Shown: one piece after another, positions 4,761 through 22,100 of the stretch
Layout: every line of letters starts with the position of its first letter
How positions within the stretch are numbered: position 1 is the stretch's first letter
Assembly (NCBI GenBank): GCA_003647275.1
Contig: QMMN01000002.1
Coordinates: 21,726 to 85,725, forward strand
Origin: Deltaproteobacteria bacterium
GTDB taxonomy: Bacteria; Desulfobacterota; Desulfobacteria; Desulfobacterales; C00003060
Direction: 5' to 3'
Length of the DNA: 64,000 nucleotides
Position numbers and translations under genes: made by a program
The notes under the pieces: generated by a model
What the model was told of the DNA's origin: nothing
Database searches by the model: none
Seen by the model: the letters and a program-made list of their open reading frames with translations, nothing else

Positions 4761-7031
4761 TTATTGGGACTCCAGGGAATCTTCAAAGATTTTGGATAAA
4801 CGCTGCTTCAGTCCCTCGGCTTCTGTGTCGTTCGGGAGTGAGCGGGCAAGTTCCCGGAACATCAGATATGCGTCAATGCGGGAAGCGGATTGGATAATTC
4901 CCCGCGCTTTCTTTATGAGGTCTCTTTTTTCCTCCTCTATATAAGTAAGAACGAGCCGTCGTTTTTTCCCTGCTTTGGCATCCAGTCTTGCTCCTTCAAG
5001 CAGGCTGGTCGCTTCTGACAACAGTCCCATTCTTGCCTTGAGTTTGGCCATGAGGAGGCGGATTTCAAAACCATTGTCCGGGATGATGTTATCAAGCTCC
5101 ATGGCGGCTTCATGGTGAAGGCCATTATCTGACAAGAAATAGATGTAAGAGATACGTTCAACCAGTTTCTCATCTTGCGACGTTTGATCCATGCCTTTGC
5201 CCACCCTTGCCATTTCCATTTGTTGTTCAGAAATTCGTTCCAGAATTTTTTCCGATTCAGTTTTCATTTTTGTAAAGGCCTCAAGATTTTTTCTGATTTC
5301 AGCACTCAGACGCCGCCCTGGTTCCGAGATAGATGCGATCTTTTGAGTCTCACGCTTGAGTTTGAACCAGATGGAAGACATATATTGATTTAGCAATGGG
5401 TTTTGAACCAAAAAATCCTGTATCTCCTTCCCGTCCTGATTGATTTGGTTTGCCAGTCCCTGGTCTATCTGGCCCCTCTTGAGCCTTTTGTCAAATTCTT
5501 CTAACGCCTTAATGCCGCGAGAGCAAATTTCCATTGTCTTTTGGAAGACCTTGGATAAGGCTTTCATACTGGATACAGGAAGCTTCTCTCTAACGGTCTC
5601 CAGAGATAAAGACGCAGATGGCAGCTTCTTTGAAAGGTCAGGCAGATTTTTACAGACCTCATCTATGTCCATTTCTAAAGTCCCCTCGATACGAGCGCCT
5701 GACAAAGTCGCGTTGATCGGTCTTGCTTCCGAGCATTTGATGTGCCACTCAAGGTGACGTTTAATATCTGAAAGGTGGGGAAAGGTCCTGACTATTGTAT
5801 TATGCATGCCAGGGGCCTTGATTAAACGAGGATCATCGGGCTCAAGGTGCCTCCTGAAGTGGTGCCCGTTAGCATGGGTAACATTGTCCACGGCCAGATC
5901 AAGTCCGATCAGGATAATGGGATCTGCCTCCAAGTAAACAGCCAGATTAAAGGCAAAAACGGCCACAGAGGTTCCTGTGCTTAAGGAGAGTCGGTGGTGC
6001 TTGTGGGAAGGAAGCATAGGGTAAAGTGCTTTTTGAGGTACGGCAAAACAAGGCCCAAGGTATTTTTTGACGAATTTAGGATGGGAGGAGGAAGAAAAAA
6101 TCAGCGGGGTCTGCTGGGCAAATCGGGTATGTTTTAGCATACCAAAAGACTCAATATTCTTATCAGATGTCAAGACGAAGTCTGCTGCAATGCCATTGGA
6201 TAGTAGGTTCCTCCAGGAGGCAGCAAATGCGAAAACAAACATCTTTTTTTGCGCCTGGCTTATTTTTTCCATGGACCGATCCAACGAGGGGCCAGGGCCT
6301 ACCAGAAGGACAGGCTTGCCCTTGACTAGAGATTTGAGTATTTCCACACCGGGCACCAGAGATACAATGATGGTGTTTTCGATCTCATTTTGAATTGAGG
6401 TCCTGCCAATTAGGGTGGCATTTTTTATCAGTACATTCGCATAACGATAGGCCTCCTCTATTTGTTTGCCCCATTTTTTATATTCAATGGATATCGCCTC
6501 GCTTCTGGGATCCACAATAACTTTAATTTTCTTATGTAGAAGCCCTTTGCTGAGGAGATGCAGAAAAAGATTCTCAATGGCCTTTTGGTCGGGCTTTACA
6601 ATGTGCAGGTTATCAGTTCTGATGGGCTCGACAAGGTCCACTTGGTGCAATGCCAGCTTAAGCAGCCAAGGATTTGGCTCCAGGACCATGATATGATGTC
6701 CATGGGCCATCTTTTGAAGAATTGCACTGACAGTATATCCCAGACCCATTCCCACCAGACAGGTCATACTACCGCTTGAAAGGTCCATGCCATGAATGAC
6801 CGAAAACTCTGCTTCAACAGAGGGGGATCTCTCATAATAGAGAACCTGGTTTCCGGATGATAGCCGAATCAGGAGATTAGCTGAACCGTCGTTGGTTGGC
6901 AGGGGGCTTATACCTGGGTCCGCTTGGGCGCCATCAAGCCAGGTGTGCAATTCCGGGTTAAGATCGAAGAGCGCCTCCATGTTCTTTTTAAAGATATGGC
7001 TGCCTTCGAGAGGTAGTTTTTGTTTTAACAT
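4761..7031 (-). CDS. maf: Motility accessory factor (Maf, DUF115/MptE-like) putative flagellin glycosyltransferase with a long helical C-terminal extension
   Basis: 756-aa ORF. DUF115 core motifs are VLLVGPGPSLDRS, FVLTSDKN and GTSVAVFAFNLAVYLEADPIILIGLDLA. N-terminus FKKNMEALFDLNPELHTWL. It lies next to the flagellin locus, convergent with the GT4 gene and divergent from the 1416-aa GT gene. Confidence 0.8.
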   Translation of the reverse strand: MLKQKLPLEGSHIFKKNMEALFDLNPELHTWLDGAQADPGISPLPTNDGSANLLIRLSSGNQVLYYERSPSVEAEFSVIHGMDLSSGSMTCLVGMGLGYTVSAILQKMAHGHHIMVLEPNPWLLKLALHQVDLVEPIRTDNLHIVKPDQKAIENLFLHLLSKGLLHKKIKVIVDPRSEAISIEYKKWGKQIEEAYRYANVLIKNATLIGRTSIQNEIENTIIVSLVPGVEILKSLVKGKPVLLVGPGPSLDRSMEKISQAQKKMFVFAFAASWRNLLSNGIAADFVLTSDKNIESFGMLKHTRFAQQTPLIFSSSSHPKFVKKYLGPCFAVPQKALYPMLPSHKHHRLSLSTGTSVAVFAFNLAVYLEADPIILIGLDLAVDNVTHANGHHFRRHLEPDDPRLIKAPGMHNTIVRTFPHLSDIKRHLEWHIKCSEARPINATLSGARIEGTLEMDIDEVCKNLPDLSKKLPSASLSLETVREKLPVSSMKALSKVFQKTMEICSRGIKALEEFDKRLKRGQIDQGLANQINQDGKEIQDFLVQNPLLNQYMSSIWFKLKRETQKIASISEPGRRLSAEIRKNLEAFTKMKTESEKILERISEQQMEMARVGKGMDQTSQDEKLVERISYIYFLSDNGLHHEAAMELDNIIPDNGFEIRLLMAKLKARMGLLSEATSLLEGARLDAKAGKKRRLVLTYIEEEKRDLIKKARGIIQSASRIDAYLMFRELARSLPNDTEAEGLKQRLSKIFEDSLESQ

Positions 7032-7340: not shown

Positions 7341-10300
7341 ATGCAACAACAGTTTCAGCAAATAATAACTGCCATTCATAAGAAAAGATGGTCCTTTCAA
7401 CCTTTAACCAAAAAGGAGCTCGTATTTCTTTTGGCAGATTGTATCCTGGATAGACGGCTCTTTTCCTCGCCCAACTGGAACTGGCGCTATGGTGGGGTCA
7501 GATACATCCCGGATAAACAGACCGATCCAGAGCCTTCAAAAATACTGGTTTTGCAATGGCCTGGGACATTGGGCGATGTGGCCATGAGCGCTCCGGTATT
7601 CTCCATATTAAGGCAAAAATATCCCCATGCAGAAATCTCCTTTTTATCTGGCAAAACAGCTCAGTATATCTTTATGGGCAACCCTGACATAGATGTTTTG
7701 ATGGACAATCCTCTTGACCCTTATTTAGAGAAGGTTATGCATGGGCGTTCCATTGACCTTGAGGCCCTGTTGAGAGACATCTCCAGCCTTGTCGAATTAT
7801 TGACAAAAAACGAATATATTCTCCTGGTCAATCTTCAGGTTTTGCCCATGTCGGCTGTCCTGGCTAAGCTGTCTGGAGCCAAGCATACGATCGGAATGAC
7901 CCTGACGCCCGATGGGATGCCTGTTATCCACGGAAATATCTGGGCGGCTTATCTATTTGGGGTTTCCGCAAGCCTCATGAGGAGATATAACCTGCTCCAC
8001 CGTACAGAGATCTTTAACCTGATGATTGATGAACAGGGGAGGTTTATACCTGACTCCACGCTTTACATCAATCATGAAGCGGCGGAGAATGTTCAGGCAT
8101 TTTTTGACCACCACAGGATAAAAGATGAAGATCTTGTGGTGGGCATCAATCCCATGGCCGGGACCCCGATCAGAAAGTGGGGGCATTACGATCAGTTGGC
8201 CAAAAGAATCAAAGATGAATTAGGAGCCAAGGTGATCGTCTTCGGGGCAAAGGCTGAAGAAGATAAGGTTGATGAAATTGTCCGAAGAGCAGGAAAAGAT
8301 GTTATCAAAGCCACACAGTTCAATTTACAGGAGCTGATGGCGGCCATCTGCGGTTGTGATCTCTTCATCACCAATGATACCGGCCCCATGCATTTGGCAT
8401 GTTTGCTTAAACGCAAAGTCATAGCCCTTTTCGGGCCAACGTCCTTTCAAGAAGTAGGGCCTTGGCAGACCGAATTCCACGTACTTCAGTCATCACTGTG
8501 CCGGGATTGCTACAAACAGGTGTGTCCCTATCCTGAAAAATACTGCATGAACCAGATAAAGTTGGAAGATGTTTTCAAGGTCGTGGAGAAGGTCGTGAAA
8601 GGCGAGCTTGTTGCTGACATTGGGGACCATCTAATTTATCGGTCGTCAAAGGATATAGATCCCCGTGAGGCTGAGGATGCGTTTCTTGGGCAGATGATTT
8701 TTCAAGTGTTCAAAGTAAAAGGCCAAGGCATAGAAAGGGCTCCGGAAAGACCCCCAGAGGCTTTTAGGGAGACCGAGGGGCTCATGAAGGAATACAGCCA
8801 TGTCAAGAGCATGGTTAAAAAGGCAATCAACTACTTCAATATGCCGGCATCCGTCAATCTACAAAAGCTCCAGGAGATCCATCAGTCTATCGAGAGTGTT
8901 GATGAGATTTTAAAACCCATCGTGGTGATCAATGCGCTTGAATTTTTGGACAGAAGGATTCCCTTAAAAGAAAACCTTGATGCCTATCGCAACTTCTATG
9001 ACAGTCTTCTCAAGGACCTTGAGATCATGATGAGTTGCATCAGTGCGCAACCCAAAAAGGCGGTCAGATTTGGTCAAGACGAGAAAAGAGGACAAGCCAC
9101 ATTGCCAATGGACGACAATAAAGATTCCATTCCTATGATTGCGGAGATTCATCACCATCCTTTGATTAGTGTGCACATGATCGTGTGGAACCAAGAGAAG
9201 TATATAGGCGATGCTATTAGAAGCGTATTAGATCAAACCTACCAAAACTATGAGCTGATCATTGTTGATGACGGGTCAACCGACAACACAAGACAAATCA
9301 TCGAAACTTTCAGATCCGATAAGATCAAATACCACCTTAAAGAACATAGTGGCGTTGTAGCATCAAGGAACTATGCCTGTGATAAATGTGCTGGTGATTA
9401 CATCGCATTCTTGGATTCAGATGACATGTACGAACCGACTATGCTTGAAAAAGAAGTAGCTACCTTATTGAGAAACCCTGACTTGGATGTGGTGTATACC
9501 AATCTTAAGATTATCGATGAAAACGGAAATGAAACAGGAGCCGTATGGACATACAAAGACTATGAGTCCCAAGAATTGATACCAGCTCTCTTTCGTGCTG
9601 GTCAAAATATTACGCCCTTCCCCTCGATGATGGTGACAAAGAGAATCTCAGATAAAGCGGGAGGGTTTGATTCAGATTTTATAATTAACGAAGACAGCGT
9701 TTATACTGCGAAGTTGGCAAAACACGGGAAATTTAAGCATATCAATCTTCCCCTTTATAAGTATCGTCGCCATGGTTCTAACATCTCCCACCGAAGAAGC
9801 AGTTTAAAAGAGAGATCGGCAAGCACCGCTTTGATGCTTACAAAAATGCTGGAAATGTTTTCAAAGGAAGAAATTTTTCCGGAAATTCACTGGGCTGCCA
9901 TGCCCGATAAAGCAAAAGAGGCAGAATTCAACTTCCAGGTGGCCAGGGTATTCTGGGAACATTGCAAGGCCTATTTAACACATGAATGTCATCATAACCT
10001 ATTGGAAGGAGCGAATACATTTTTGGGCAAATGCCTGACAGTCGATCCGACCCACAGAGGCGGGATCAATCTCGCCAAGGAGTTAAATTCATTGTCTGAG
10101 ACAATTCAGGATAGAAGTGGAGAGGCTCCGACCAAAGTTGAGGAGAAGGTTGAATCCACAAAACACAAACTAAGGATTCTTTACCTTGCAGACTGCCGAA
10201 GTCAACACACAAAAAGGTATGTGTGCTTTTTCAAGGACCGGGGCCATGAGGTCCATATCTTTGACACTTCCGAGCATGGGGAGGGCCTGGAGGGTATTCA

Positions 10301-11591
10301 ATTACACTTTCCCCAAACACCACAAAACGATGAATCTAACGACAAGTATGAAGACCTGTTTATCCAGCGTGTATTTCAGCTTAACAGCCTTATTGACCGA
10401 ATAAAACCTGACATCCTCCATGGTCATTACCTGACAGAGCGCTGCTGGTGGGGAGCACTCACGGGCTTTCAGCCCTATGTGCTCACATGTTGGGGGTCCG
10501 ATATATTTTTGGATACGAAACTTAACGATTTTAATCGGAGGTTTAGTGAGTTTTGTCTAAAGACAAGTCCCTTGGTCACAGCCGATTCCATGGATTTACT
10601 TCGGGCGTCCACAAACTTAAGAGGGTTTTCAGATGGTGTGAAATATATACCCTTTGGGATTGATGTGGAGCTGTTTAGACCGGGTCTTGATACCTCTTCT
10701 TTGGCCAAAAAATTAGGAATCAATGGATTAAGGGTTGTCCTCAGCCCCCGGCAGTTTAGACCTCCGGCCAATATAGACGTCCTCATAAAAGCGATTCCAA
10801 AGATCATATCCAAAATACCAAACACCGTTTTTATTTTAAAGAACTATCTAGGCGAAGGGACAGCCTATGAGGAATATAAAAAGTATCTTCATGACTTGGT
10901 CAAAGAACTTAATGTTGAGAGTCACGTCACCTTTATGGACAATGTGAGTTTTGATGAAATGCCTATCCTTTATAATCTTGCAGATGTGATGGTCACCTTG
11001 CGGGACACGGATGGCTCTTCCTGTTCCATGTTAGAATCTATGTCTTGTAAGACGCCGGTGGTAGCCAGTGACATTGAAAGCATGCGGGAATGGATTATGG
11101 ATGGGGAAAACGGAAGGATCGTTAACCAAAACGACCCAGATTCCGTCGCAGATGCCATTTCAGAAATATTACTGGATGATGAGAAAAGACGGAAATTCCA
11201 AGAAGCAAGCCATGCCATAGTTTGCCAGAAAGCAGATTATCGAAAAAACTGGCTTGAGATGGAACAGCTCTACTATGAGGTTAGTCAAAAGAGCATAGAG
11301 GGGCCCCTTTCAAGTGGTTTCCCAGATTCAGATATATCGATAATCTATGGGAATCTCCGAACAGGATGGCATTCTATCGCATCCCATAACCTTGATAAAG
11401 GGAGGGAGGCTTTTGCCAAGATACTGGAGGCTTCCCAGCTCACTGCGCACAGCTACATGAGGGCCTTAATTGGATTGGCAAGGATAGCTTGGATCAAAGG
11501 AGATACAAAGGAAGCTAAAGCCTATTACATGGGGTGTTTAAAACTTTTACAAGGCTTTGAGCTTGATACACGCCTGGACATCAAAGGATAG
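7341..11591 (+). CDS. Giant multi-domain glycosyltransferase: GT9 (heptosyltransferase-like) + GT2 + GT4 + C-terminal TPR
   Basis: 1416 aa.
- GT9 part, about aa 65-400: [65 protein letters not shown].
- GT2 part, about aa 608-830: [52 protein letters not shown].
- GT4 part, about aa 942-1310: [66 protein letters not shown].
- TPR-like tail: [25 protein letters not shown]. Confidence 0.8.
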   Translation: [1416 protein letters not shown]

Positions 11592-11786
11592 GGCATTTGC
11601 TATAACTTGGAAGGCAAATTGGAATTCACCATTATTAAGGACAAAGGCAGATTTAGAACGGAAAATCGTGAGACCCAGAGATTAGTCGCCTCTGAGACCA
11701 GGGCCAAGGAGATGATGAATTGGAAAGCACAAACACCCCTGAAGGAAGGCTTGGACAAAACAGCGGGTTGGATTCAAGGCCCCTGA
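11592..11786 (+). pseudogene. Remnant of the C-terminus of an NAD-dependent sugar epimerase/dehydratase (no start, about 64 codons)
   Basis: This stretch follows the stop of the 1416-aa ORF directly and in the same frame. It reads GICYNLEGKLEFTIIKDKGRFRTENRETQRLVASETRAKEMMNWKAQTPLKEGLDKTAGWIQGP*. The ..ETRAKEMMNWKAQTPLKEGLDKTAGWI tail matches the usual SDR epimerase/dehydratase C-terminus (D.SKA...LGW.P...L.EGL..T..W). No N-terminal Rossmann part is present. Confidence 0.6.
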
Positions 11787-11836
11787 AATCCAGTAAAACA
11801 CAAACCTTTGTCTACTGAGATTTAAGGAGAAGCACC

Positions 11837-12574
11837 ATGTTGGCAGTGATTATGGCCGGAGGAGAAGGTACGCGCCTTAGACCCTACACAAAGGTTATTC
11901 CCAAGCCTTTGCTCCCCGTTGGAGATAAACCCATTCTGGAAATTCTCATAAGGCAGCTTAGAAATGAAGGGTTCAATGATTTGATCATCACAACGGGCTA
12001 TCAAGGAGATCTCATAAAGGCATATTTCCAGAACGGATCAAAATTCGGGGTGCATATCAGATATACAACCGAAAAGATCAGGCTGGGAACCGCCGGCGCG
12101 CTCTCCCTCATTGATCGAACAATAAAAGAACCTTTCCTTGTCATCAATGGAGATATTCTGACTGATCTCAGCCTAAAAAAGTTCATGAGCACCCATGTCT
12201 CCGACAAAGCTACTCTGACGGTGGGTATCGTTAAGTTCAAATTAGATATCCCTTATGGCGTGGTGCAATCCAATGGAAAAATATTTGAAAGCATCGAGGA
12301 GAAACCACGATATTTTTTTGATGTTGGCGCTGGCATTTACGGGGCCGATCCGGGGCTCCTTGATTATCTTCCAAAGGCGCGCAGGATGGATTTCCCTGAA
12401 CTCATCAAGATGTTAAAGAAAAAAGGAGAAAAGGTGATATGCTTTGAGGTGGAGGAATACTGGAAGGATATAGGCATCATGGAGGATTTTGAAGCGGTTC
12501 ATAAGGACATCGAGAATTGGGATCAAGACCGTCTATATCACGTATTTCGTCAGGACTCATCCGAAGCACGCTGA
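11837..12574 (+). CDS. Sugar-phosphate nucleotidyltransferase (NTP_transferase family, HddC/PtmE-like)
   Basis: The N-terminus MLAVIMAGGEGTRLRPYTKVIPKPLLPVGDKPILE carries the G-G-x-G-T-R-L signature. Also LGTAGAL and FLVINGDILTD. An RBS (AAGGAGAAG) precedes the ATG. Confidence 0.85.
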   Translation: MLAVIMAGGEGTRLRPYTKVIPKPLLPVGDKPILEILIRQLRNEGFNDLIITTGYQGDLIKAYFQNGSKFGVHIRYTTEKIRLGTAGALSLIDRTIKEPFLVINGDILTDLSLKKFMSTHVSDKATLTVGIVKFKLDIPYGVVQSNGKIFESIEEKPRYFFDVGAGIYGADPGLLDYLPKARRMDFPELIKMLKKKGEKVICFEVEEYWKDIGIMEDFEAVHKDIENWDQDRLYHVFRQDSSEAR

Positions 12575-12576
12575 TT

Positions 12577-12816
12577 ATGGATAAACTTTCTTGCGTCAAG
12601 CCTGACCCCTTCAGAGGACGGAATTCAAGCCGTCTCCAATGCTATTCTGTCTGGATGGGTCAGTGAGGGGGAAATGGTCCGGAAATTTGAAAAGGTCATA
12701 GAGGATTATATTGTGCACATAGACTTTCAACGGAACCGTCGCCTTTCATGCAGCTTTTCTGCCCCCTTGATTTAGGCGCTGGAGACGAGGTCATTAGCCT
12801 GTCAGAAAAATTTTGA
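12577..12816 (+). pseudogene. Frameshifted, truncated N-terminal remnant of a DegT/DnrJ/EryC1-type sugar aminotransferase
   Basis: Three pieces sit in three different frames: ..EDGIQAVSNAILSGWVSEGEMVRKFEKVIEDYI.., ..NGTVAFHAAFLPP* and ..LDLGAGDEVISLS... Joined, they reproduce the conserved DegT N-terminus (..sgw...G..v..FE..fa.y.., sGTaALhlAl.al, g.GDEVi.ps). The homology stops at about 12816, just before the radical SAM gene. Confidence 0.65.
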
Positions 12817-12826
12817 GAAAGGTATC

Positions 12827-14128
12827 ATGAAAATCACCTTGGTGCAGCCTAGACCAGGTAAATATAACGCCACCTACGTTCACGAACCACTCAATCTTGG
12901 ATATCTGGCAAGTTATTTAAAGGAGCGAGGATTTGATGAGGTGGGTATCATCGTCTCCGCATTTTGGGAAGATGATAAGGAAATCGTTAAACGATGTAGG
13001 GAATCGGATGTGGTAGGTTTTACGGCTACGTCGCCTATGATGGCACATGCTCTCTCTCTGGCAAAGGACATAAAGGGGAAAGATCCGGAAATCATAACGG
13101 TTTTCGGTGGGCCTCATCCGACAATAGAGCCCGATGGGACCCTCCAGAATCCAGCTGTGGATTATGTAGTCCGAGGTGAAGGGGAACAAACTTTTCTGGA
13201 ATTGATTGAATCAATCGATGCGTGCCGTTCAACACTTAAAATCAAGGGGCTCTCCTTTAAAGATAGGCATGGTTGCATTATCCATAATCCGAGACGTCCG
13301 CTTATAAGTGACTTGGATGTCCTTCCCTTTCCAGACCGGGATTTGCTTGGTCAAGCTCGTTTCCTTGACATTGGCTATGAGAAGTACGGTGATCGCGGAG
13401 CATGGGTCTTATCCAGTAGGGGCTGCCCCTTCAGATGCACCTATTGCGCCTCCAACAAGGTTTGGACAAGGACTTGGCGCGCACGTTCACCTGAGAATAT
13501 CATTGTCGAGATAAGGTCCTTAAAATTACACTATAACGTTGATCGCATAAACTTTGCCGATGACACGTTTACTATTTCCAAAAAGAGGGTCGTGGATTTC
13601 TGCAAGAAAATGATGATAGAAAAACTGGACGTTGTGTGGGCATGCAATGCTCGGGTTGACACTGTGGACGCGGAGCTGTTTGCCCTGATGAAACGCGCCG
13701 GGTGTACTGAGGTGTGGATGGGCGTTGAAAGTGGTTCGACAAAGATTTTGAAAGAGATAAAAAAGGAAATTACGCCCAAACAGATCATAGAGGCATTTAA
13801 GGGAGCCAAGGCAGCTGGTTTAAAGAGACGTGGATATTTTATGATTGGATCAAGGAGTGAATCTCTTGAGACCATAAAACAGACCGAGGCTCTTGTTGAT
13901 GCCATAGAACCTGATCGGCTCGCTTTTAGCATTATGACCCCTTACCCAGGGTGTGAAGAATTTGAGCTCTGGAAGAAATACAGCGGAAACCACAAGATCG
14001 AATGGTCTGAGATAGACCTATTGGAGACCGAAGCGGTAATGATGGAAACCCGGTTTCTTTCTAAAGACGAATTGCGAGCTGAACACCGTAGGCTCAAGGA
14101 AAAATACGCTTCCATATGGCGGGTGTGA
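12827..14128 (+). CDS. B12-binding-domain radical SAM enzyme (class B type)
   Basis: The N-terminal B12-binding-like fold is MKITLVQPR..LNLGYLASYLKERGFDEV..VVGFTA. The radical SAM cluster motif is SSRGCPFRCTYCAS (CxxxCxxC). It is followed by elp3-like GVESGS. Confidence 0.85.
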   Translation: MKITLVQPRPGKYNATYVHEPLNLGYLASYLKERGFDEVGIIVSAFWEDDKEIVKRCRESDVVGFTATSPMMAHALSLAKDIKGKDPEIITVFGGPHPTIEPDGTLQNPAVDYVVRGEGEQTFLELIESIDACRSTLKIKGLSFKDRHGCIIHNPRRPLISDLDVLPFPDRDLLGQARFLDIGYEKYGDRGAWVLSSRGCPFRCTYCASNKVWTRTWRARSPENIIVEIRSLKLHYNVDRINFADDTFTISKKRVVDFCKKMMIEKLDVVWACNARVDTVDAELFALMKRAGCTEVWMGVESGSTKILKEIKKEITPKQIIEAFKGAKAAGLKRRGYFMIGSRSESLETIKQTEALVDAIEPDRLAFSIMTPYPGCEEFELWKKYSGNHKIEWSEIDLLETEAVMMETRFLSKDELRAEHRRLKEKYASIWRV

Positions 14129-14250: not shown

Positions 14251-14414
14251 TCATGGATTTCAAAAAAGTTTTCAGACAGATTTTTTCGCTCACTTAAGGT
14301 AAAAAATCGCGCCCTTTAGATAATGGTTAGAAGCATCCTGAGACAGAGGCCAGCCCGAAGAAAATAGTTGTAGACTTTATGACGGTTGGACGTCGGGGTT
14401 ACAGAAGGAATTCA

Positions 14415-16058
14415 ATGAGCAACCAGACTCAAAACAAGAAAGCTTTGCCAAAGATTTCTCTTTGCATGATCGTGAAGAATGAAGAAGAGATGCTTCCAAA
14501 GTGTCTCAGCAGTGTTAAGCATTTTGTGGATGAAATCATTGTGGTGGACACGGGTTCAACCGATAGGACCGTTGACATAGCCCAGAGTTATGGCGCAAAG
14601 GTCTATCACCATCCCTGGGAGGATGACTTCAGCAAGCACCGAAACCAGTCCATTTCTTATGCCGCCGGAGATTGGATCTTCATTATGGATGCGGATGAGG
14701 CGTTAAGGCCTGGAGATGGCGTAAAGATTCGAGAGGCGATTTCACACCCTGAAATCGATAGTGTGATGGTTGTCGTGGTCAATTTTTTTAATCAGGGAAC
14801 AAGTCAGAGTTTATTCAATCAGGTGCGTTTGTTCAAAAGAGATCCAGCCATCTTTTACTCGGGCATTGTTCACAATCAGCTGACCGGATACCAGTCAACC
14901 GTGGCCTGTTCCGCACAGATCTATCACTATGGTTATGATTTGGGCCAGGAGAGGATGCAGGCAAAGTTTGTTCGTACTTCCTCTCTGCTAAAGAAAAGAA
15001 TAAAACAGGACCCTGAAAATTTTCGCCATTATCATGACCTCGCTGTCAGCTATTCCATGAACAGAATGTTCGATGAAGCTGTCTCGGCAGGTATCAAGGC
15101 GATTGAATTAGCCAAAAACACTGAAAAAAAAGGCGGGGTTCTGATTCTGTGGACCTACTTTATTGTGGCATCCTCGTTGCTGATACAGAGAGATTTTCAG
15201 GGGGCAGAGAAGTATGCCCTTGAGGCACTGAAAAGATTTCCTAACCATCTTGATTCCCATTTTATTCTTGTAATGGCTTATCACGGATTGAAGGATTGGG
15301 CCCGTGTGAAAGAGGTTTCCGATGACTATTTCAATCTTCTCAAGGCCGTGCAGGAGCACCCCGGTCGCTTTGGCTATATTGTCAACAATACCACTGGAGA
15401 AGCTTGGCGCGTTCATCTGGTTTTAGGAGATTATTACCTGGAACAAGGGGATGTTCATCGGTGTAAGGAGGCATTTGATCATGCTTTTTCCGGTGCGCCA
15501 GTGGCATTTGAATGCCTGAAGATTATTGCCGACAGTTATAAAAACCGATCCTTATGGAAGGAGGCCGCCTATTATTACCAGCAGGCCTTCAAGGAAAAGG
15601 GTGACTTTCTGGGGGCCTTGTTGGGTCTGGCCTTGGCAAAGAATCGCCTTGGTAAAAAGAGAGAGGCCATCCAATATTATGAAAGGGCTTTGGAATTAGA
15701 ACCTGATTCCATTGAGGCCCTGGTCAACTTGGGCGACCTTTACTGTGAACAAGGGGAGGAAGATCTTGCTCAAAAATTCTATGAGAAGGCCCTGGGCATT
15801 GAATCCAAACTCGTCAATGTTTCACTTCGGCTGGCTAACTTTTCCGTGCAAAATGGTGAACTTGAGAAATGCGTGAGCTATTGTGAAAATATTCTTGAAA
15901 GCCTTGGTCTGTCGTTCAACCGCCCACTGGAAAGCGTATCGGATTTGGCTGATCTCTTTTTGATTATTGGCCATGAGTTGGATAAATCTGGGAGGGATGA
16001 CCTGTTTAGGGAGGCCATGAAGGTCGCGTTAAATCTAAAACCAGAACTAATAGCATAG
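14415..16058 (+). CDS. GT2 glycosyltransferase with C-terminal TPR domain (paralogue 1)
   Basis: GT2 motifs are ISLCMIVKNEEEMLPKCLSSVKHFVDEIIVVDTGSTDRTVDIA, HHPWEDDFSKHRNQ and DWIFIMDADE. The C-terminal half is TPR repeats. ATG 14415 (RBS GAAGGA) is preferred over the ORF-track start at 14379. Confidence 0.85.
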   Translation: MSNQTQNKKALPKISLCMIVKNEEEMLPKCLSSVKHFVDEIIVVDTGSTDRTVDIAQSYGAKVYHHPWEDDFSKHRNQSISYAAGDWIFIMDADEALRPGDGVKIREAISHPEIDSVMVVVVNFFNQGTSQSLFNQVRLFKRDPAIFYSGIVHNQLTGYQSTVACSAQIYHYGYDLGQERMQAKFVRTSSLLKKRIKQDPENFRHYHDLAVSYSMNRMFDEAVSAGIKAIELAKNTEKKGGVLILWTYFIVASSLLIQRDFQGAEKYALEALKRFPNHLDSHFILVMAYHGLKDWARVKEVSDDYFNLLKAVQEHPGRFGYIVNNTTGEAWRVHLVLGDYYLEQGDVHRCKEAFDHAFSGAPVAFECLKIIADSYKNRSLWKEAAYYYQQAFKEKGDFLGALLGLALAKNRLGKKREAIQYYERALELEPDSIEALVNLGDLYCEQGEEDLAQKFYEKALGIESKLVNVSLRLANFSVQNGELEKCVSYCENILESLGLSFNRPLESVSDLADLFLIIGHELDKSGRDDLFREAMKVALNLKPELIA

Positions 16059-16132: not shown

Positions 16133-19108
16133 ATGACTCATAAAATTAGGTTAGCATATGTACACAGTTATTTGCCGTTAGGTGGGGTTGAGAATCACAT
16201 TCTTCAACTGTGCAGGCACCTGGACAGGAATCAGTTTGAAATCGAGGTCTGTCTCTTCCGAGGAGGCGGGCCTATGCTGCCCCTGTTTGAAGAAATCGAT
16301 ATACCAGTGGAAATCATTCCTGTGCTTGACCAAAAAGGGGCCATTAGCGAGAGAAAATTCCAAGACTTCGTGAAAAAACTGAGAGAATTTGACGTGTTCC
16401 ACAGTTGGTATGGAGGCGGGCAACTACACGTCGGGTTTCAGGCAGCTTATATGGCCAAAGTCCCTGTTCAGGTGCAGAGCATTGCCTGGCCGGTCCCAGC
16501 CTTTGGCCAACATTTTGATGCCGTGATCCTGGAAACCGACTTCGTGTTGAGAATTCAGCAAAAAGCCGGCGTAAAGTCTCGTATGGTGCGCATCAATCCG
16601 GGAATCGACCTCTCACGTTTCGATCCCAAAACTATCCGCCCTGCGGTCCAGTTCGATGGTCAGGTTGTCGGGCGGGTAAGTCGCCTTGTGCCAGAGAAAG
16701 ATCCCGAATCCTTTGTGCGGTCTGCAGCCCTGGTTCAGAAGCGCCACCCAGAGGTGAATTTCCTCATTGTGGGGGATGGTCCTCTTCGCCATGAGCTTGA
16801 GGTGTTGGCTGGTCAGCTTGATGCTAATGTTCAATTTTATGGAGAAACCACGAACGTGCCTGGCGTTTTAGCTGCCATGGATGTCTTTGCTTATTCCACC
16901 CTAGGCGACTCGTTCGGCTTCGTCAATGCCGAGGCCATGGCCATGGCAAAGCCTGTCATCAGCACTCGAGTTGCCGCCATCCCCGAAGTGGTAGAAGATG
17001 GTCGAAGTGGAATTCTGGTTCCTCCGAAAGATGTGGACATGCTATCCGATGCGATCTGCTACTTAATTGAGCATCCCGAGGAGGCCAAGCGGTTGGGACA
17101 AAGAGGACGCCAGATCATCGAGCAGCGATATAACCTCAAGCGATATATAAGTCAACATGCACGGCTGTATGAGGAACTGTACTTCCAAAAACAAAATTCC
17201 AAGCATGGGCACCTTATCACTCCGAGGATTCAGCAGTCATCTCAAAATAATCATTCAGTTGAGACTATAGGGAGCCTAAGCACTGCAACGACTTCCTCGC
17301 GCAGAAAACGGATTCTCATTATCCAGGAAAATGGCCGCCACGAGCGCAACCGCCAGTTTCGGGAATGCTTTGCTCTGCAGAGAGCATTTGGTCACCTGGG
17401 CGTGTCCGCAGACGTGTGGGGTTTGGGGCACGACAATTTCCGTCAACCGTTTGATGACATCGTTGGTCAGTATGACGCCGTGCTTTCACTGGAAAATTAC
17501 GACACAGGCTGGCACCCAGACCTTGCAACGCTGAAGATACCTAAAGCCTTCTGGTGCATCGACGCGCACATGGGCGTTGAACGGTATCTGGATTTTGTGC
17601 GCCGCCACCGGTTTGACTTGGTTTTCAATGCCACAGAACACTTTGTTGACCGCTTTACCGGACTTGCTGAAACCAGTCTTTGGTTGCCGAACGCATATGA
17701 TAGTTTTTTGGTGGACAAGATTTTTAATGTTCAGAAAACAGTGTCCCTTGGCTTCTGTGGCAACGTTGTCAACCGTGGGGAGTGGATCGAATATCTCAAT
17801 GAGCGTTGGAACCTTAGGCACGACGAGATGGTCATTGGCCCCGACATGGTACGTGCGATTAACAGTTATCAGGTCCACTGGAATCGTAATTTCTCGATTG
17901 ACATCAACTACCGCACCTTCGAGACTCTGGGTTGCTGCACCTTCCTGCTTACGAACTACACGCCGGGCCTCGAAAAACTCTTCACGTTGGGTAAGCACCT
18001 CGTGGTTTATGAAACCCGGGACGATCTTGACGAGAAGATTTCTTACTACCTTACGCATCCTGAAGAGCGGGAACAGATCGCCAGACAGGGGTATGATCAT
18101 GTCCGGAAGAACCACAAATATATCCATCGCGCGGAGCAAATCCTCGATGCGCTAGGCTTCACCGTTTCTGACGCGGTACACTATAGTCAGAGAATTCAGA
18201 TTTATGAAATTACGCAGAGAATGATCTCTATCAAGGAATATCTGTTCGTGTCTGGCGCCACAAAATCGGGAACAACTTTATTGGCTAACGCCCTGAGTTT
18301 CTCGGAAAGAGTTTCATTCTTGAGAAATGCAGATGGAAAGATAGAAGAAGGCCAGTGGGTTCAGGACGTTTATGAGTGGGGAAAGGGAAATCAAGATCTC
18401 ACAGAAGAATATCACATGACAGAAGATCACCCCCTGGCAACCGCAGAAAACCGGATTCGGTTGTACAGGTGTTGGCTTCGCTACTGGGACATAAAAAAGC
18501 CTATTTTGGCTGAAAAAAGTCCTCATAACATCATTAAGACAAGATTCCTTCAGGCTCTGTTTCCGAATTCCAAGTTCATCATACTGGTGAGGAACGGTGT
18601 CGTCCAAGCGACCGGGGAAACGCTGCAGCAAAAAAGATCTCCCCTTGTTTGCTGCCAAGAGTGGGTGAATGCCTACCAGATGTTGATGCGCGATTTGCCC
18701 CACTTAAACGAGTACCTGATCGTGCGCTATGAAGATTTGACAAACAATGTCGAAGCAACGTTTGATAAGATCTGTAAGTTTATCGGGATCCCAAGGATTA
18801 ATGTCAAAGATAAGTATTTCTATGTCCATGCCTTTCGGGATGGAATTAAACGGCCAGATTTCAACAAAATCCAGGATATGAATAGGCCACATATCCAGAA
18901 TTTTCTTACTAGATTTGACCAGGAAACCCAGCAGGCAATGCTTCGCATTTGTGAGCCTGCAATGACAATGTTTGGCTATACCACAGATATAGCCAAGTAT
19001 CATGAATACATAAAAAACCATAACTATCGTCTCTTGGTCACGGATACTGGTAAACAAGAAACACAAAGAGAAAAACAAACAAAAACCTCTCTCGCCTGTA
19101 TCCAATGA
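16133..19108 (+). CDS. Tri-domain enzyme: GT4 + CgeB/DUF3880-like GT + C-terminal sulfotransferase
   Basis: 991 aa.
- GT4, about aa 1-350: RLAYVHSYLPLGGVENH, DSFGFVNAEAMAMAKPVISTRVAAIPEVVEDGRSGILV.
- CgeB-like GT, about aa 390-680: INYRTFETLGCCTFLLTNYTPGLEKLFTLGKHLVVYETRDDLDEKISYYLTHPEEREQIARQGYDHV.
- Sulfotransferase, about aa 700-960: 5'-PSB loop FVSGATKSGTTLLANAL, 3'-PB region ILAEKSPHNIIKTRFLQALFPNSKFIILVRNGVVQATGE, and IVRYEDLTNNVEATFDKICKFIGI. Confidence 0.8.
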   Translation: MTHKIRLAYVHSYLPLGGVENHILQLCRHLDRNQFEIEVCLFRGGGPMLPLFEEIDIPVEIIPVLDQKGAISERKFQDFVKKLREFDVFHSWYGGGQLHVGFQAAYMAKVPVQVQSIAWPVPAFGQHFDAVILETDFVLRIQQKAGVKSRMVRINPGIDLSRFDPKTIRPAVQFDGQVVGRVSRLVPEKDPESFVRSAALVQKRHPEVNFLIVGDGPLRHELEVLAGQLDANVQFYGETTNVPGVLAAMDVFAYSTLGDSFGFVNAEAMAMAKPVISTRVAAIPEVVEDGRSGILVPPKDVDMLSDAICYLIEHPEEAKRLGQRGRQIIEQRYNLKRYISQHARLYEELYFQKQNSKHGHLITPRIQQSSQNNHSVETIGSLSTATTSSRRKRILIIQENGRHERNRQFRECFALQRAFGHLGVSADVWGLGHDNFRQPFDDIVGQYDAVLSLENYDTGWHPDLATLKIPKAFWCIDAHMGVERYLDFVRRHRFDLVFNATEHFVDRFTGLAETSLWLPNAYDSFLVDKIFNVQKTVSLGFCGNVVNRGEWIEYLNERWNLRHDEMVIGPDMVRAINSYQVHWNRNFSIDINYRTFETLGCCTFLLTNYTPGLEKLFTLGKHLVVYETRDDLDEKISYYLTHPEEREQIARQGYDHVRKNHKYIHRAEQILDALGFTVSDAVHYSQRIQIYEITQRMISIKEYLFVSGATKSGTTLLANALSFSERVSFLRNADGKIEEGQWVQDVYEWGKGNQDLTEEYHMTEDHPLATAENRIRLYRCWLRYWDIKKPILAEKSPHNIIKTRFLQALFPNSKFIILVRNGVVQATGETLQQKRSPLVCCQEWVNAYQMLMRDLPHLNEYLIVRYEDLTNNVEATFDKICKFIGIPRINVKDKYFYVHAFRDGIKRPDFNKIQDMNRPHIQNFLTRFDQETQQAMLRICEPAMTMFGYTTDIAKYHEYIKNHNYRLLVTDTGKQETQREKQTKTSLACIQ

Positions 19109-19172
19109 CTTCCCAATGGGCATATAGTCGGGCACAAGTGACGAGGACCGCGCCACAACTTAGAGGTTAAGT

Positions 19173-22100
19173 ATGATCATCCGGATTGACGATTACCCGC
19201 ACGGCGATCTTATTATCTACAATCGCTTGCTTGCTGATCGCAGTTACGATCACCGCAGGCACGTGTACCACTTTCTGCGACCGTTCGAGGAGAGGGGGGT
19301 GTCCTACGTGCTAGGCGTATCGCCCGGCCTGATCAACCGCGAGTCCGATCTATTTTTTCTTCGCTCCTTGCACCACTGCGAGGTCGCCATGCATGGGTTC
19401 AGTCACGGCTGGCATGAATTTGCAGAAACATGGCACAGCATTACGGAGACATGGCCGTATGGCGGTGAATTTGCTCATGCGTCGCGCGAGGAGGTACGCG
19501 AAAAAATTCAACGTGGGTTAGAGATTCTTTCCGACTTCAAGATTCGAAAATTTATCGCTCCTTTCAACGCCTACACTCAAGAACTGCTCGACGTGCTCAA
19601 TGAGTTTGGCTTCGAGATGATCATGGGAGGTAGACAAACGCTTCAGTTTGGCATGGACCGCCTCGACCACGGTAATCTCCAGCTTGATGTCTGTGTGCCG
19701 CCGCTTTGCAATGACAGCCACAAGATCATCCCGCACTTGGATCAGGCTATTGTAGAGCAAAAGACGATTCTCCTTCATTGGATCTTCGAACAGGCCGCCA
19801 ATGTGTCCTATTGGGATCAAATTGCCGAAGCCGTCCAGCATGCGGAATCGCACCGTGTTGTATCTCCGAAGCATGCGGAGCCATATCTTGCCAGGTCTCC
19901 CGTTGAAGTGCGCAATGTCCATACGCCGATTAGGAGACCATCGTCTGCCCTTGCCACCGGCAAGGAGTTGCTGCACTCCCTGCCCATTGCCATTGTTACT
20001 GAAACAATGAACTACATCTCGGGCGGTGTGAGGTGCATTGCCGAGGTGCTCAACCGCCTTGCCGCCCGCGGCTATCAAACCGCGTGCTATGTCACCCTTT
20101 CTGACCTGCGTTGCGAGTGGCTAACCACAGACTTTCCTATTTTGCCAGTCTCTGAACTGCTTAACTTCCGAGGTATTCTCATCAGTCCATTTTCGCCCAC
20201 CGCCGAAATCGTGGCCCGTTCTAATGCCATCGGCAAATTTTATTGGGTTCACTCCTACGAACCTAAGTTTCCCGAGATCACGGGTCGACCAGACAGTTGG
20301 CGTGTGATGTCTGAGAACTCGTATCGTCTGCCCGAGTTACAATATTTCACCACCTCATCCTATGTGAGGATGATTCTAGAGTTAATCTATGGGCTTGAGG
20401 TGCTCTCTCCACTCGTTCCTGGAGGGGTGGACATAAGTTTATTCAGGCCTGGCCCTAAGGGAAACCGCCCACTCCGGGTGTTGTTCCTGAGCCGCGAAAA
20501 TCCATTTCGCGGCGCACACGACGTTGTGCACGCCCTTCGTATTGTTCGTGATCAGGGCGTAGACTTGGACGTGTACGTGATGGGTCAGGCAATAAATATG
20601 GAAGGTCTGCCCCATCGCCTTGTGCCACCGCTTCCCCAATCCGAGTTTGCCCAATTGCTTGGATCGGCAGATATCTTCATTCATGCCAGCCACTTCGAAG
20701 GGCTACCGCTTCCACCGTTGGAGGCTATGGCTGCCAAATGTGCGGTGATCGCCACCTACGTGGGAGCCAGTGATTATCTGCTCAACGGCTACAACGCCCT
20801 CGTTGTGCCACCCAAACGCCCGGACAAAATTGCCGAGGCGCTACTGTGTCTTGCGACTGATGCAGATTTAAGGGCTCGGTTTGGGGAAGGCGGCTACCGG
20901 ACCGTGACCAATAACTACACATGGGAGCACACTGTAGATCGGCTGGAAGAAGCTCTATCCGAGGGAATGGCCCGGATCGGCTATGGCTCAATGGCAACCA
21001 CGGCGTGGATGTCATCCCATGAGCCTAAACCAAGTACAAGTACCCATTTTCACGTATCAGAATTAGAAAAGTCGAGGGACCCCCATAAACCGGGGGAGGC
21101 TCCTTTTGGTGAAGGTGATGTGGAAGATGATTGGGAATACCTCGTTTCTGCCATCGTCTCCACCTATAATGCCGAACGTTTCATCCGTGGTTGTCTTGAG
21201 GACTTGGAGGCCCAGACCATTTCAGATAGGCTAGAGATAATTGTTGTCAACAGCGGTTCAGAGCAAAATGAAGAGATGATTGTCAAGGAATTTCAGGAGA
21301 AATACCCAAACATCAAATATATAAGGACGCCACAGCGCGAAACAGTCTATGCCGCCTGGAATCGTGGCATCAAGGCTTCGCGTGGCAAATATATTACCAA
21401 TGCCAATACCGACGATCGACATCGCCCGGATGCCTACGAACGGATGGTGGGGGTGTTGGAGGCCAGACCAGATATTGCATTAGTCTATGCAGACGTCATC
21501 ATTACTGAAAAAGAGAATGAAACATTTGAAAAATGCACGCCCATTGGCATTTGTGGTTGGATTGATTGGGACAGACGTCGCCTCTTGGAGGGGAGATGCT
21601 TCATGGGTCCGCAGCCCATGTGGCGACGCAGTTTGCATGATGAGTATGGCTATTTCGATGAGTCATTTGTTACTTCAGGCGATTACGAGTTCTGGCTGCG
21701 TGTTTCGCAGACCAACAATTTTTTCCACATTCCAACGCCCTTGGGACTATATTTGAAATCTTCGGACAGTATTGAGCACTTAAATCGTAAACAGCAACAG
21801 GAAGAGAATGAAAAGATCGTTGCAATGTATAAAAAAGCAGAAGCTTCCGGGGATATTATCAGGCGTTTTTACTCAGATAATGAGGAGGATTTGATAAGAG
21901 TTCATAATCGAAAAGGGGAAGAACTCTTTAAAACAGGAAACGTCAAAGTCGCCAAAGTCATTTTTGAACAAATCCTGTCCAAGAATCCGAAAATGGTCGA
22001 TCCCCTCAACAACCTGGGCGTCATTGCCTTTCAGCAAGGTGAAATAGATCGGGCCATTTCCTATTTTACCCGTGTGATTGAAATCGATGAGGACTGTTTT

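Follow-up and report, generated by a model that had tools for sequence, protein, structure and literature searches.

Decayed dehydratase and aminotransferase genes in a flagellin glycosylation cassette of an uncultured sediment deltaproteobacterium

Results

The analysed DNA is a stretch of 64,000 nucleotides (hereafter the window) from the metagenome-assembled genome of an uncultured sediment 'Deltaproteobacteria bacterium', and the locus described here belongs to a flagellin glycosylation island. Every feature from 7341 to 14128 lies on the plus strand. The island encodes a Maf-type protein (PF01973) at 4761-7031 and an intact giant multi-domain glycosyltransferase (GT) of 1416 aa at 7341-11591 (GT9 + GT2 + GT4/GT1 + TPR by Pfam; GenBank RLB83752.1). 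Further downstream are two intact genes, a sugar-1-phosphate nucleotidyltransferase gene (11837-12574; 245 aa; RLB83754.1) and a B12-binding radical SAM (rSAM) gene (12827-14128; 433 aa; RLB83755.1). Remains of a LegB-like SDR 4,6-dehydratase gene separate the GT gene from the nucleotidyltransferase gene, and remains of a DegT-type aminotransferase gene separate the latter from the rSAM gene. Dehydratase, nucleotidyltransferase, aminotransferase and B12-radical-SAM enzyme are the four members of a conserved cassette.

The nucleotidyltransferase matched PF00483 with an E-value of 3.6e-42 (positions 2-243 of 245) and carries 'GGEGTRLRP', with the N-terminal G-x-G-T-R-L motif; Pfam gave no match to CBS (PF00571). 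It is 70-76% identical to its counterparts in the three metagenome lineages L026, L112 and L113, and it keeps 70/70 residues that are invariant in 22 relatives and 132/142 that are invariant in six syntenic relatives. Comparison with genome contigs yielded relatives of at most 42% identity only, and a profile search of metagenome contigs returned patterns on a generic Gly-rich motif and, among the matches listed, relatives of at most 43% identity. The rSAM protein matched PF02310 (E 6.9e-24) and PF04055 (E 3.9e-25), has the CxxxCxxC motif as CPFRCTYC and keeps 203/211 invariant residues. Its identity to the syntenic gene product is 63-73% in six relatives and 71-73% in L026, L112 and L113. No NCBIfam equivalog cut-off was reached: the best scores were ~205 bits, where 480-580 would be required. 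Residues 607-1416 of the GT (the last 810) are 50-58% identical to the product of the gene upstream of the SDR gene in seven relatives, and the GT ends at '...FELDxxLDIK' followed by the stop, a terminus common to the relatives' upstream gene.

To locate the SDR remnant, a profile HMM was built from six intact syntenic SDRs and used to search 3150 six-frame peptides of the window. Results showed a single match at 11592-11783 (E 4.1e-12, HMM positions 264-316 of 329). A reading made from the sequence alone (hereafter the sequence-only reading) had placed an SDR tail of 64 codons there, in frame with the 1416-aa ORF, and this was borne out, with the stop at 11784-11786. The best NCBIfam match of the remnant was LegB TIGR04180 (positions 259-295 of 297, E 1.3e-4), with a score of 21 bits against a curated cut-off of 475; Pfam by itself was weak (E 0.01). 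The segment at 11616-11786 corresponds to codons ~262-318 of 329 and ends at a premature stop. A frameshift near 11780, absent from the sequence-only reading, leads into the final 11 codons and the original stop (11783-11818, stop at 11816-11818), as seen in the DNA and peptide alignment with L026: the end peptide is 'LKSSKTQTFVY' in the window and 'AAYKTRKFVY' or 'KTRKFVY' in L026, each followed by a stop. The original stop and the downstream spacer are conserved in the DNA. This 18-nt spacer (11819-11836) holds the ribosome-binding site of the nucleotidyltransferase gene, AAGGAGAAG, at an equal distance to the start codon in L026, L028, L029 and L023.

The SDR relic had also been described as having no N-terminal part, which holds for codons ~8-261 and fails for codons 1-7. 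The 32 nt after the GT stop (11592-11623) matched the region from GT stop to SDR start of L028 at 22/32 nt with one gap, a score reached by 0/5000 shuffles and by 0/3000 after best-of-5 correction. They consist of a 10-nt remnant of the former GT-SDR spacer followed by the first seven SDR codons, in which a 1-nt deletion has turned the former start codon (11602-11604) from ATG into ATA; the deletion junction lies near 11620. By alignment, the relic thus retains the first ~7 and last ~68 codons and lacks ~255. Since only codons 1-7 and ~262-329 could be aligned, the Rossmann fold, the GxxGxxG NAD-binding motif (the intact orthologues carry 'TGAGGFIGSH') and the catalytic Ser/Thr-Tyr-Lys region are missing. 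The stretch is therefore a relic of a LegB-like family member and not itself a member. That its tail shares the frame of the GT gene looks like chance. Fusion or readthrough between GT and SDR tail was considered and rejected, because the two are separated by the old spacer and the SDR start, and because the GT stops at the residue where its counterparts in the relatives stop. GenBank annotates 11607-11786 as a 'hypothetical protein' of 59 aa (RLB83753.1, DRH17_00945), which covers the SDR relic; this ORF begins with TTG without an upstream Shine-Dalgarno sequence and is a singleton among ~15 billion proteins.

The DegT relic (12577-12816) lies ~0.8 kb 3' of RLB83753.1 and is unannotated in GenBank. 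It starts with an ATG at 12577 and is colinear in DNA with the first ~260 nt of the intact L026 gene apart from small indels. The sequence-only reading had seen the start of a DegT gene, about 75 codons broken over three frames; we found the same with an extent of ~80-85 of 364 codons, in four segments (12577-12606, 12602-12724, 12726-12764 and 12766-12816) separated by three frameshifts, one of them in a C5 run at 12762-12766. The frame-corrected peptide matched Pfam DegT (PF01041) with an E-value of 3.5e-7 (positions 5-71 of 360). A DegT orthologue HMM detected uncorrected single-frame pieces with E-values of 8.5e-6 and 0.086; it matched only 12575-12772, with no further DegT similarity found anywhere in the 64-kb window, so both relics lie where they had been placed. 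Pfam matches of raw single-frame pieces were weak (E ~0.01), and identification of the relics draws on the orthologue HMMs, colinearity and synteny. The family motifs 'NGT.AL' and 'GDEVI' are represented by 'FNGTVAFHAA' and 'GAGDEVI', which align with the orthologues. The deletion has removed ~280 codons and with them the PLP-lysine region; without the PLP-binding lysine, the large and C-terminal domains and an uninterrupted ORF, the relic falls short of a full family member. Judged by eye, ~12807-12826 resembles the extreme 3' end of the L026 DegT gene. Its final 10 nt (12817-12826), compared by eye with L026 and L028, presumably carry the rSAM ribosome-binding site; the sequences before the rSAM ATG are ATTTTGAGAAAGGTATC in the window, ATCTTGGAAACAAAATC in L026 and ATTTTGAAAAGCAACT in L028.

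Constraint on the two relics was compared with that on the intact neighbours. The SDR tail keeps 13/19 and the DegT head 27/39 orthologue-invariant residues, that is 68-69% against 93-96% in the two intact neighbours (Fisher p 0.005 to 2e-6). Overall, the SDR tail is 41-46% and the DegT head ~50% identical to the orthologues, values not below those of some pairs of intact orthologues over the same segments. The decay signal depends on the invariant positions and on few references, namely six SDRs and, from two clades, five DegTs.

As an alternative to decay, the sequence-only reading had named sequencing or assembly error in the frameshifted stretch. On such a view, SDR and DegT would be intact in the cell and the truncations and frameshifts artefactual. 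The source being a metagenome-assembled genome and the one frameshift in a C5 homopolymer would suit such an error. However, the 1.5-kb stretch at 11401-12900 is 100% identical in independent assemblies from different pipelines: ENA ERZ1742239 (a SPAdes contig, with a coverage of ~39x from the record name), Logan SRR6823441 and JGI 3300033148. Separate contigs of 126,824 bp (NCBI/JGI) and 129,679 bp (ENA/Logan) carry these genes, and the GT allele of the JGI contig is strongly divergent upstream of ~11050, so that this contig comes from a different strain background. Moreover, the flanking genes of 245, 433 and 1416 codons contain zero frameshifts, and indel errors cannot cause the outright loss of ~255 and ~280 codons. 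We therefore regard error as extremely improbable. All relic copies being identical, they are silent on selection acting on the relics.

Comparison with relatives that retain the intact genes, as had been proposed, showed an SDR gene of 329 aa and a DegT gene of 364 aa at the syntenic site. The genes run GT, SDR, NTP transferase, DegT, B12-rSAM (433 aa) and flagellin in L026, L112 and L113. The proposal of an ancestral cassette of dehydratase, nucleotidyltransferase and aminotransferase, two genes of which are now dead, agrees with this order. Other relatives have fewer genes: L028, L029/L030 and L023-L025 have SDR, NTP transferase and rSAM without DegT, and L027 has NTP transferase and rSAM alone. 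Searches by blastn or HMM found no DegT relic in the NTP-rSAM spacer of L028, and L023-L025, L027 and L029-L030 yielded no relic of either gene. Intact SDR or DegT paralogues were not found by tblastn and HMM in the window and 8 kb upstream. A close sister strain with intact genes was not found either (76% identity for the closest NTP transferase homologue), and the deletion endpoints are accordingly known only to ~5-15 nt.

The same synteny bears on how the cassette was broken. It had been suggested that the giant GT and rSAM genes were inserted into an older amino-sugar cassette, overwriting the 5' part of SDR and the 3' part of DegT. Each relic does adjoin one of these two genes, and the GT gene has seen some recombination, as its N-terminal module (GT9) is unlike that of most relatives and its body is mosaic between strains. 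Yet GT and rSAM already flank SDR...DegT in L026, L112 and L113 and are therefore ancestral neighbours, not insertions. The rSAM gene lies directly 3' of DegT or NTP transferase in 9/9 related loci with this gene order, at 63-73% identity, and the last 810 residues and exact C-terminus of the GT are shared with the relatives' upstream gene. Directly after the GT stop, the former GT-SDR spacer and the first seven SDR codons are still present, so the 5' end of SDR was not overwritten, and at the other side the ~20 nt that precede the rSAM start look, by eye, like the L026 DegT end. Overwriting by insertion is thus very improbable.

We also considered that the relics are retained for a new role, as a 59-aa small protein, as a programmed-frameshift product, or as a regulatory leader or spacer for the nucleotidyltransferase and rSAM genes. 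Both deletions spared the sequences immediately 5' of the downstream start codons, GenBank annotates part of the SDR relic as a protein, and the NTP transferase-rSAM junction of DegT-less relatives is either tight or, in L028, a spacer of 216 nt. Against such a role, the 59-aa ORF is a singleton cluster with a TTG start and no Shine-Dalgarno sequence, and the relics have lost every catalytic part together with ~30% of the residues that are invariant in their families. An Rfam scan of 11300-13000 gave no significant family, and a promoter and terminator scan of the same region gave nothing above shuffle expectation. Judging from their sequences, the same gene pair in L023, L027 and L029 appears to manage with junctions of 8-20 nt or an overlap and without such sequence. 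A new role therefore seems improbable.

Discussion

These results indicate that the region is the decayed middle of the conserved four-gene cassette between the large GT gene and the flagellin genes, and that it arose by ordinary pseudogenisation through internal deletions, a reading to which we assign a probability of about 0.9. Both stretches are pseudogenes by homology to functional genes, disabling lesions, relaxed constraint and reproducible sequence; these features, together with synteny, deletion boundaries and frameshifts, were all observed directly.

The dehydratase gene lost codons ~8-261 and the aminotransferase gene codons ~86-360, in each case through a single internal deletion of ~0.8 kb that did not reach beyond the gene. 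Both relics then probably gathered small indels, and residues that are invariant elsewhere were replaced; this order, deletions before indels and substitutions, is what we consider likely. Among the lesions are the nucleotide missing from the SDR start codon, a single frameshift in the tail of that gene and three frameshifts in the head of DegT. The nucleotidyltransferase and radical SAM genes and their immediate upstream sequences stayed intact, and the tolerated deletions were probably those that spared the downstream start regions. The locus would no longer supply the lineage with a 4-amino-4,6-dideoxy NDP-sugar, and relatives that have the whole cassette probably carry a different flagellar glycan. 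The relatives show a full state, a DegT-less state and a state in which both genes are absent, which suggests a glycosylation cassette shedding accessory genes module by module. For annotation, DRH17_00945 represents the 3' end of an inactivated dehydratase gene, ~0.8 kb upstream of an aminotransferase pseudogene that lacks annotation.

The closest functional comparison is the front end of legionaminic acid synthesis. According to the passage of PMC5378307 that cites Schoenhofen et al. 2009, the enzymes in Campylobacter jejuni and Tannerella forsythia are PtmE (GlcN-1-P guanylyltransferase), LegB (GDP-GlcNAc 4,6-dehydratase) and LegC (aminotransferase). Enzymes of these three classes are likewise encoded by neighbouring genes of the cassette, within a locus for flagellin or surface glycosylation that includes a gene for a Maf-type protein. 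TIGR04180 is the best match of both the SDR relic and its intact orthologues, the latter at 426-442 bits and so just below the cut-off of 475, and the intact aminotransferase orthologues score below both the PseC and LegC cut-offs. On these scores, the PseB/PseC-like label in the sequence-only reading calls for adjustment. Among the homologues that share 45-50% identity with the nucleotidyltransferase are CBS + NTP-transferase proteins of Sulfurimonas and Arcobacter, putatively PtmE-like by their domain architecture; unlike PtmE, the 245-aa enzyme of the window lacks the CBS domain pair. Pfam was applied to ORFs across ~48 kb of the contig, beginning 8 kb upstream of the window and reaching window position ~40 kb (the larger window ORFs up to that point and the called genes of L114); genes of LegG, LegH, LegI, LegF or nonulosonate synthase type were not seen among them. 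The cassette includes a B12-radical-SAM gene instead, and in the window its LegB-like and aminotransferase genes are dead.

For the rSAM protein, the top structural-database match was 9ccb, an unnamed radical SAM protein, and the nearest solved relatives of named function were AprD4 (PDB 6fd2, E 3e-21), OxsB (5ul2, 1e-17) and TokK (7kdx, 1e-8). Like these enzymes, which are B12-dependent or related radical SAM proteins with sugar or nucleoside substrates, it has B12-binding and radical SAM domains and CxxxCxxC, at a distant level of similarity. The nucleotidyltransferase and B12-rSAM pair is kept in every sampled lineage (the window, L023, L026-L029, L112 and L113), with or without SDR and DegT, and always within a flagellin glycosylation island. 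Tentatively, the pair may be central to an uncharacterised pathway whose rSAM enzyme modifies an NDP-sugar destined for flagellin (for example by C-methylation or deoxygenation), with the LegB-like and DegT enzymes as optional glycan-diversifying add-ons and the window as a recent glycan switch; we hold this to be possible rather than probable. The pair is a candidate for an uncharacterised sugar-modification step.

Pseudogenes that arise by internal deletion and frameshift are well known in bacterial surface-glycan loci in general. The present case shares with them truncation, frameshifts, loss of the start codon, substitution of invariant residues, intact neighbours and presence or absence among relatives. 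The decay is ordinary in this respect and will be no surprise to a specialist; the one notable point is that both accessory genes have decayed while the nucleotidyltransferase and rSAM pair is intact.

Pseudogene relics of a dehydratase and an aminotransferase flank the nucleotidyltransferase gene

Two decayed genes had been noticed in the sequence-only reading beside the nucleotidyltransferase gene (11837-12574; RLB83754.1), and our analysis confirms and extends this observation, adding a frameshift in the first relic and seven N-terminal codons. Both are genuine pseudogene relics that arose from internal deletions in a conserved, modular flagellin-glycan cassette. The first is the remains of a LegB-like SDR gene (11592-11818). 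As reported, 64 codons (11592-11783) follow directly after the stop of the 1416-aa giant glycosyltransferase gene (7341-11591; RLB83752.1, DRH17_00940), reading '...ETRAKEMMNWKAQTPLKEGLDKTAGWIQGP*'. Generic libraries matched this tail weakly overall (Pfam GDP_Man_Dehyd, E 0.01; NCBIfam LegB TIGR04180, positions 259-295 of 297, E 1.3e-4). When an HMM of six intact orthologues from syntenic loci was searched against the 3150 six-frame peptides (stop to stop) of the window, the tail peptide was its only match (E 4.1e-12, HMM positions 264-316 of 329). The relic carries its own frameshift near 11780, previously overlooked: the true C-terminus 'KTQTFVY*' (compare 'KTRKFVY*' in L026, a metagenome locus with the full cassette), together with the original stop (11816-11818), is read in a different frame, and the 18-nt spacer 3' of that stop, with its AAGGAGAAG ribosome-binding site, is conserved.

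The tail had been described as lacking any N-terminal part, but codons 1-7 are recognisable. The 32 nt after the glycosyltransferase stop matched the corresponding region up to the SDR start of L028, another metagenome locus, at 22/32 positions with one gap, which deletes the G of the SDR start ATG; the alignment score was reached by 0/5000 shuffles (0/3000 after best-of-five correction). Because of this alignment and the frameshifted C-terminus, the pseudogene retains codons 1-7 and ~262-329, with ~255 codons lost via one internal out-of-frame deletion (junction near 11620). That the tail lies in the glycosyltransferase reading frame is a coincidence. The 59-aa 'hypothetical protein DRH17_00945' (RLB83753.1) of GenBank coincides exactly with a TTG-initiated ORF within this relic (11607-11786); it is a singleton cluster in a collection of about 15 billion proteins, and no Shine-Dalgarno was found in the sequence upstream of it.

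The DegT head (12577-12816), absent from the GenBank annotation, begins with an ATG at 12577, two bases past the nucleotidyltransferase stop, and is broken into four pieces (12577-12606, 12602-12724, 12726-12764 and 12766-12816), with one indel falling in the C5 run 12762-12766. The frame-broken head proposed earlier was borne out: the frame-corrected peptide matched Pfam DegT (E 3.5e-7, positions 5-71 of 360), the raw single-frame pieces matched the orthologue HMM (E 8.5e-6 and 0.086) with no other match in the window, and, small indels aside, its DNA runs colinear with the opening ~260 nt of the intact L026 gene. The final ~20 nt before the radical SAM start resemble, judged by eye alone, the extreme 3' end of the L026 gene, consistent with the internal loss of about 280 codons, the radical SAM start region being left in place.

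The alternative offered earlier, sequencing or assembly error in the frameshifted stretch, was excluded: positions 11401-12900 were 100% identical in three contigs (ENA ERZ1742239, 129,679 bp at about 39x coverage; Logan SRR6823441; JGI 3300033148), and two ~0.8 kb deletions are impossible as indel errors. A 126,824-bp contig (NCBI and JGI) also carries these genes. The relics occur in at least two strain backgrounds, because JGI 3300033148 diverges upstream of ~11050.

The glycosyltransferase and radical SAM genes are ancestral neighbours

Gene order was compared in metagenome contigs bearing nucleotidyltransferase homologues at 55-76% identity. Three loci (L026, L112 and L113) carry, tightly packed or overlapping, a large glycosyltransferase, SDR (329 aa), nucleotidyltransferase, DegT (364 aa), B12-radical-SAM (433 aa) and flagellin genes. 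L028 has SDR, nucleotidyltransferase, a spacer and radical SAM; L029/L030 and L023-L025 have SDR, nucleotidyltransferase and radical SAM with no room for DegT; L027 has only nucleotidyltransferase (90% identical to that of L023) and radical SAM. A different order (radical SAM, GalE-like SDR, methyltransferase, DegT, nucleotidyltransferase) was found in L020-L022 and L111. No DegT similarity was detected in the L028 spacer (6745-6960), a non-coding stretch of 216 nt whose last ~20 nt resemble window 12807-12826 and the L026 DegT 3' end. In L111, a 26-aa peptide just 3' of the nucleotidyltransferase (5729-5806) shows weak similarity to the start of the DegT protein (HMM positions 2-18, E 0.015) and may be another relic of this junction.

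The earlier proposal that the cassette was overwritten by insertion of the giant glycosyltransferase and radical SAM genes is refuted. The window radical SAM protein (12827-14128; RLB83755.1, DRH17_00955) shares 65-73% identity with its syntenic counterparts, and the last 810 residues of the glycosyltransferase share 50-58% with the gene upstream of SDR in relatives and have the same '...FELDxxLDIK*' terminus. The glycosyltransferase and radical SAM genes are therefore ancestral neighbours of the cassette. The loss of SDR and DegT is ordinary reductive evolution.

The glycosyltransferase gene itself is a mosaic between strains. From ~11050 onward L003, the JGI contig, matches the window at 100%, with only 45-75% DNA identity upstream, inside this gene, which implies a recombination breakpoint there; the proteins share 67% identity over 812 residues (compared region 9076-11100). 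Its N-terminal ~600 residues (1-606; 7341-9160) carry a GT9 heptosyltransferase-like domain, in whose place the orthologues of L026, L028, L112 and L113 have a TPR and methyltransferase module. The gene is conserved apart from this 5' part, where domains appear to have been swapped.

Relaxed constraint on the relics

Positions invariant in intact syntenic relatives were counted for retention in the window. The nucleotidyltransferase kept 132/142 (93%) and the radical SAM protein 203/211 (96%), compared with 13/19 (68%) in the SDR tail and 27/39 (69%) in the DegT head (Fisher p between 0.005 and 2e-6; small reference sets). The ERTRPxxSEV motif of the SDR tail is lost, now reading GRFRTENRET. 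Decay is moderate, because identity of the relics to orthologues (41-50% overall) is not below that of some intact orthologue pairs in these fast-evolving segments. Rfam and promoter/terminator scans of 11300-13000 gave nothing above background, and there is no sign of new function.

A flagellin glycosylation island

The window derives from a metagenome-assembled genome labelled 'Deltaproteobacteria bacterium' in GenBank, and the surroundings of the relics are a flagellin glycosylation island. It encodes a Maf/MptE-like protein (4761-7031, minus strand), many GT2/GT4-TPR proteins, methyltransferases and one GT-sulfotransferase fusion, all before flagellin (26444-27646), then FliD (27891-31427) and FlaG. 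The 8 kb before the window hold further glycosyltransferases behind a MerR-family gene. At 1178 aa the FliD homologue is of unusual length, and its FliD_N and FliD_C domains are widely separated. Two GT2-TPR genes (14379-16058 and 22255-24000) share ~82% DNA identity over ~530 nt in their 3' parts (15496-16028 and 23435-23967), an internal duplication or gene conversion in the island. GC content is 50-56% over the GT-sulfotransferase gene and the next glycosyltransferase gene (16200-21300) versus 41-47% in adjacent island genes, which suggests mixed origin of the modules.

Predicted role of the cassette

The PseB/PseC-like label given earlier held in part: a dehydratase, aminotransferase and nucleotidyltransferase cassette exists in L026, L112 and L113, but the intact SDRs are LegB-like (426-442 bits against TIGR04180, slightly under the cut-off of 475) and the aminotransferases fall below the PseC and LegC cut-offs alike. 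In the legionaminic acid pathway, PtmE makes a GDP-hexosamine, LegB catalyses C-4,6 dehydration of GDP-GlcNAc and LegC introduces the amino group at C-4 (PMC5378307). By likeness to this pathway, the full cassette probably makes an NDP-4-amino-4,6-dideoxyhexose, on which the B12-radical-SAM enzyme may act in turn. Among solved proteins with a named function, those closest to this enzyme are AprD4, OxsB and TokK. Functional SDR or DegT copies elsewhere had also been considered; direct search of the window plus 8 kb upstream found no second gene of either kind, nor did Pfam analysis of the larger ORFs to position ~40 kb, which likewise yielded no nonulosonate synthase.

These results are of modest value as an annotation correction (DRH17_00945 and the unannotated DegT relic) and for the range of cassette states across relatives. 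The always-kept nucleotidyltransferase and B12-radical-SAM pair is a candidate uncharacterised sugar-modification step.
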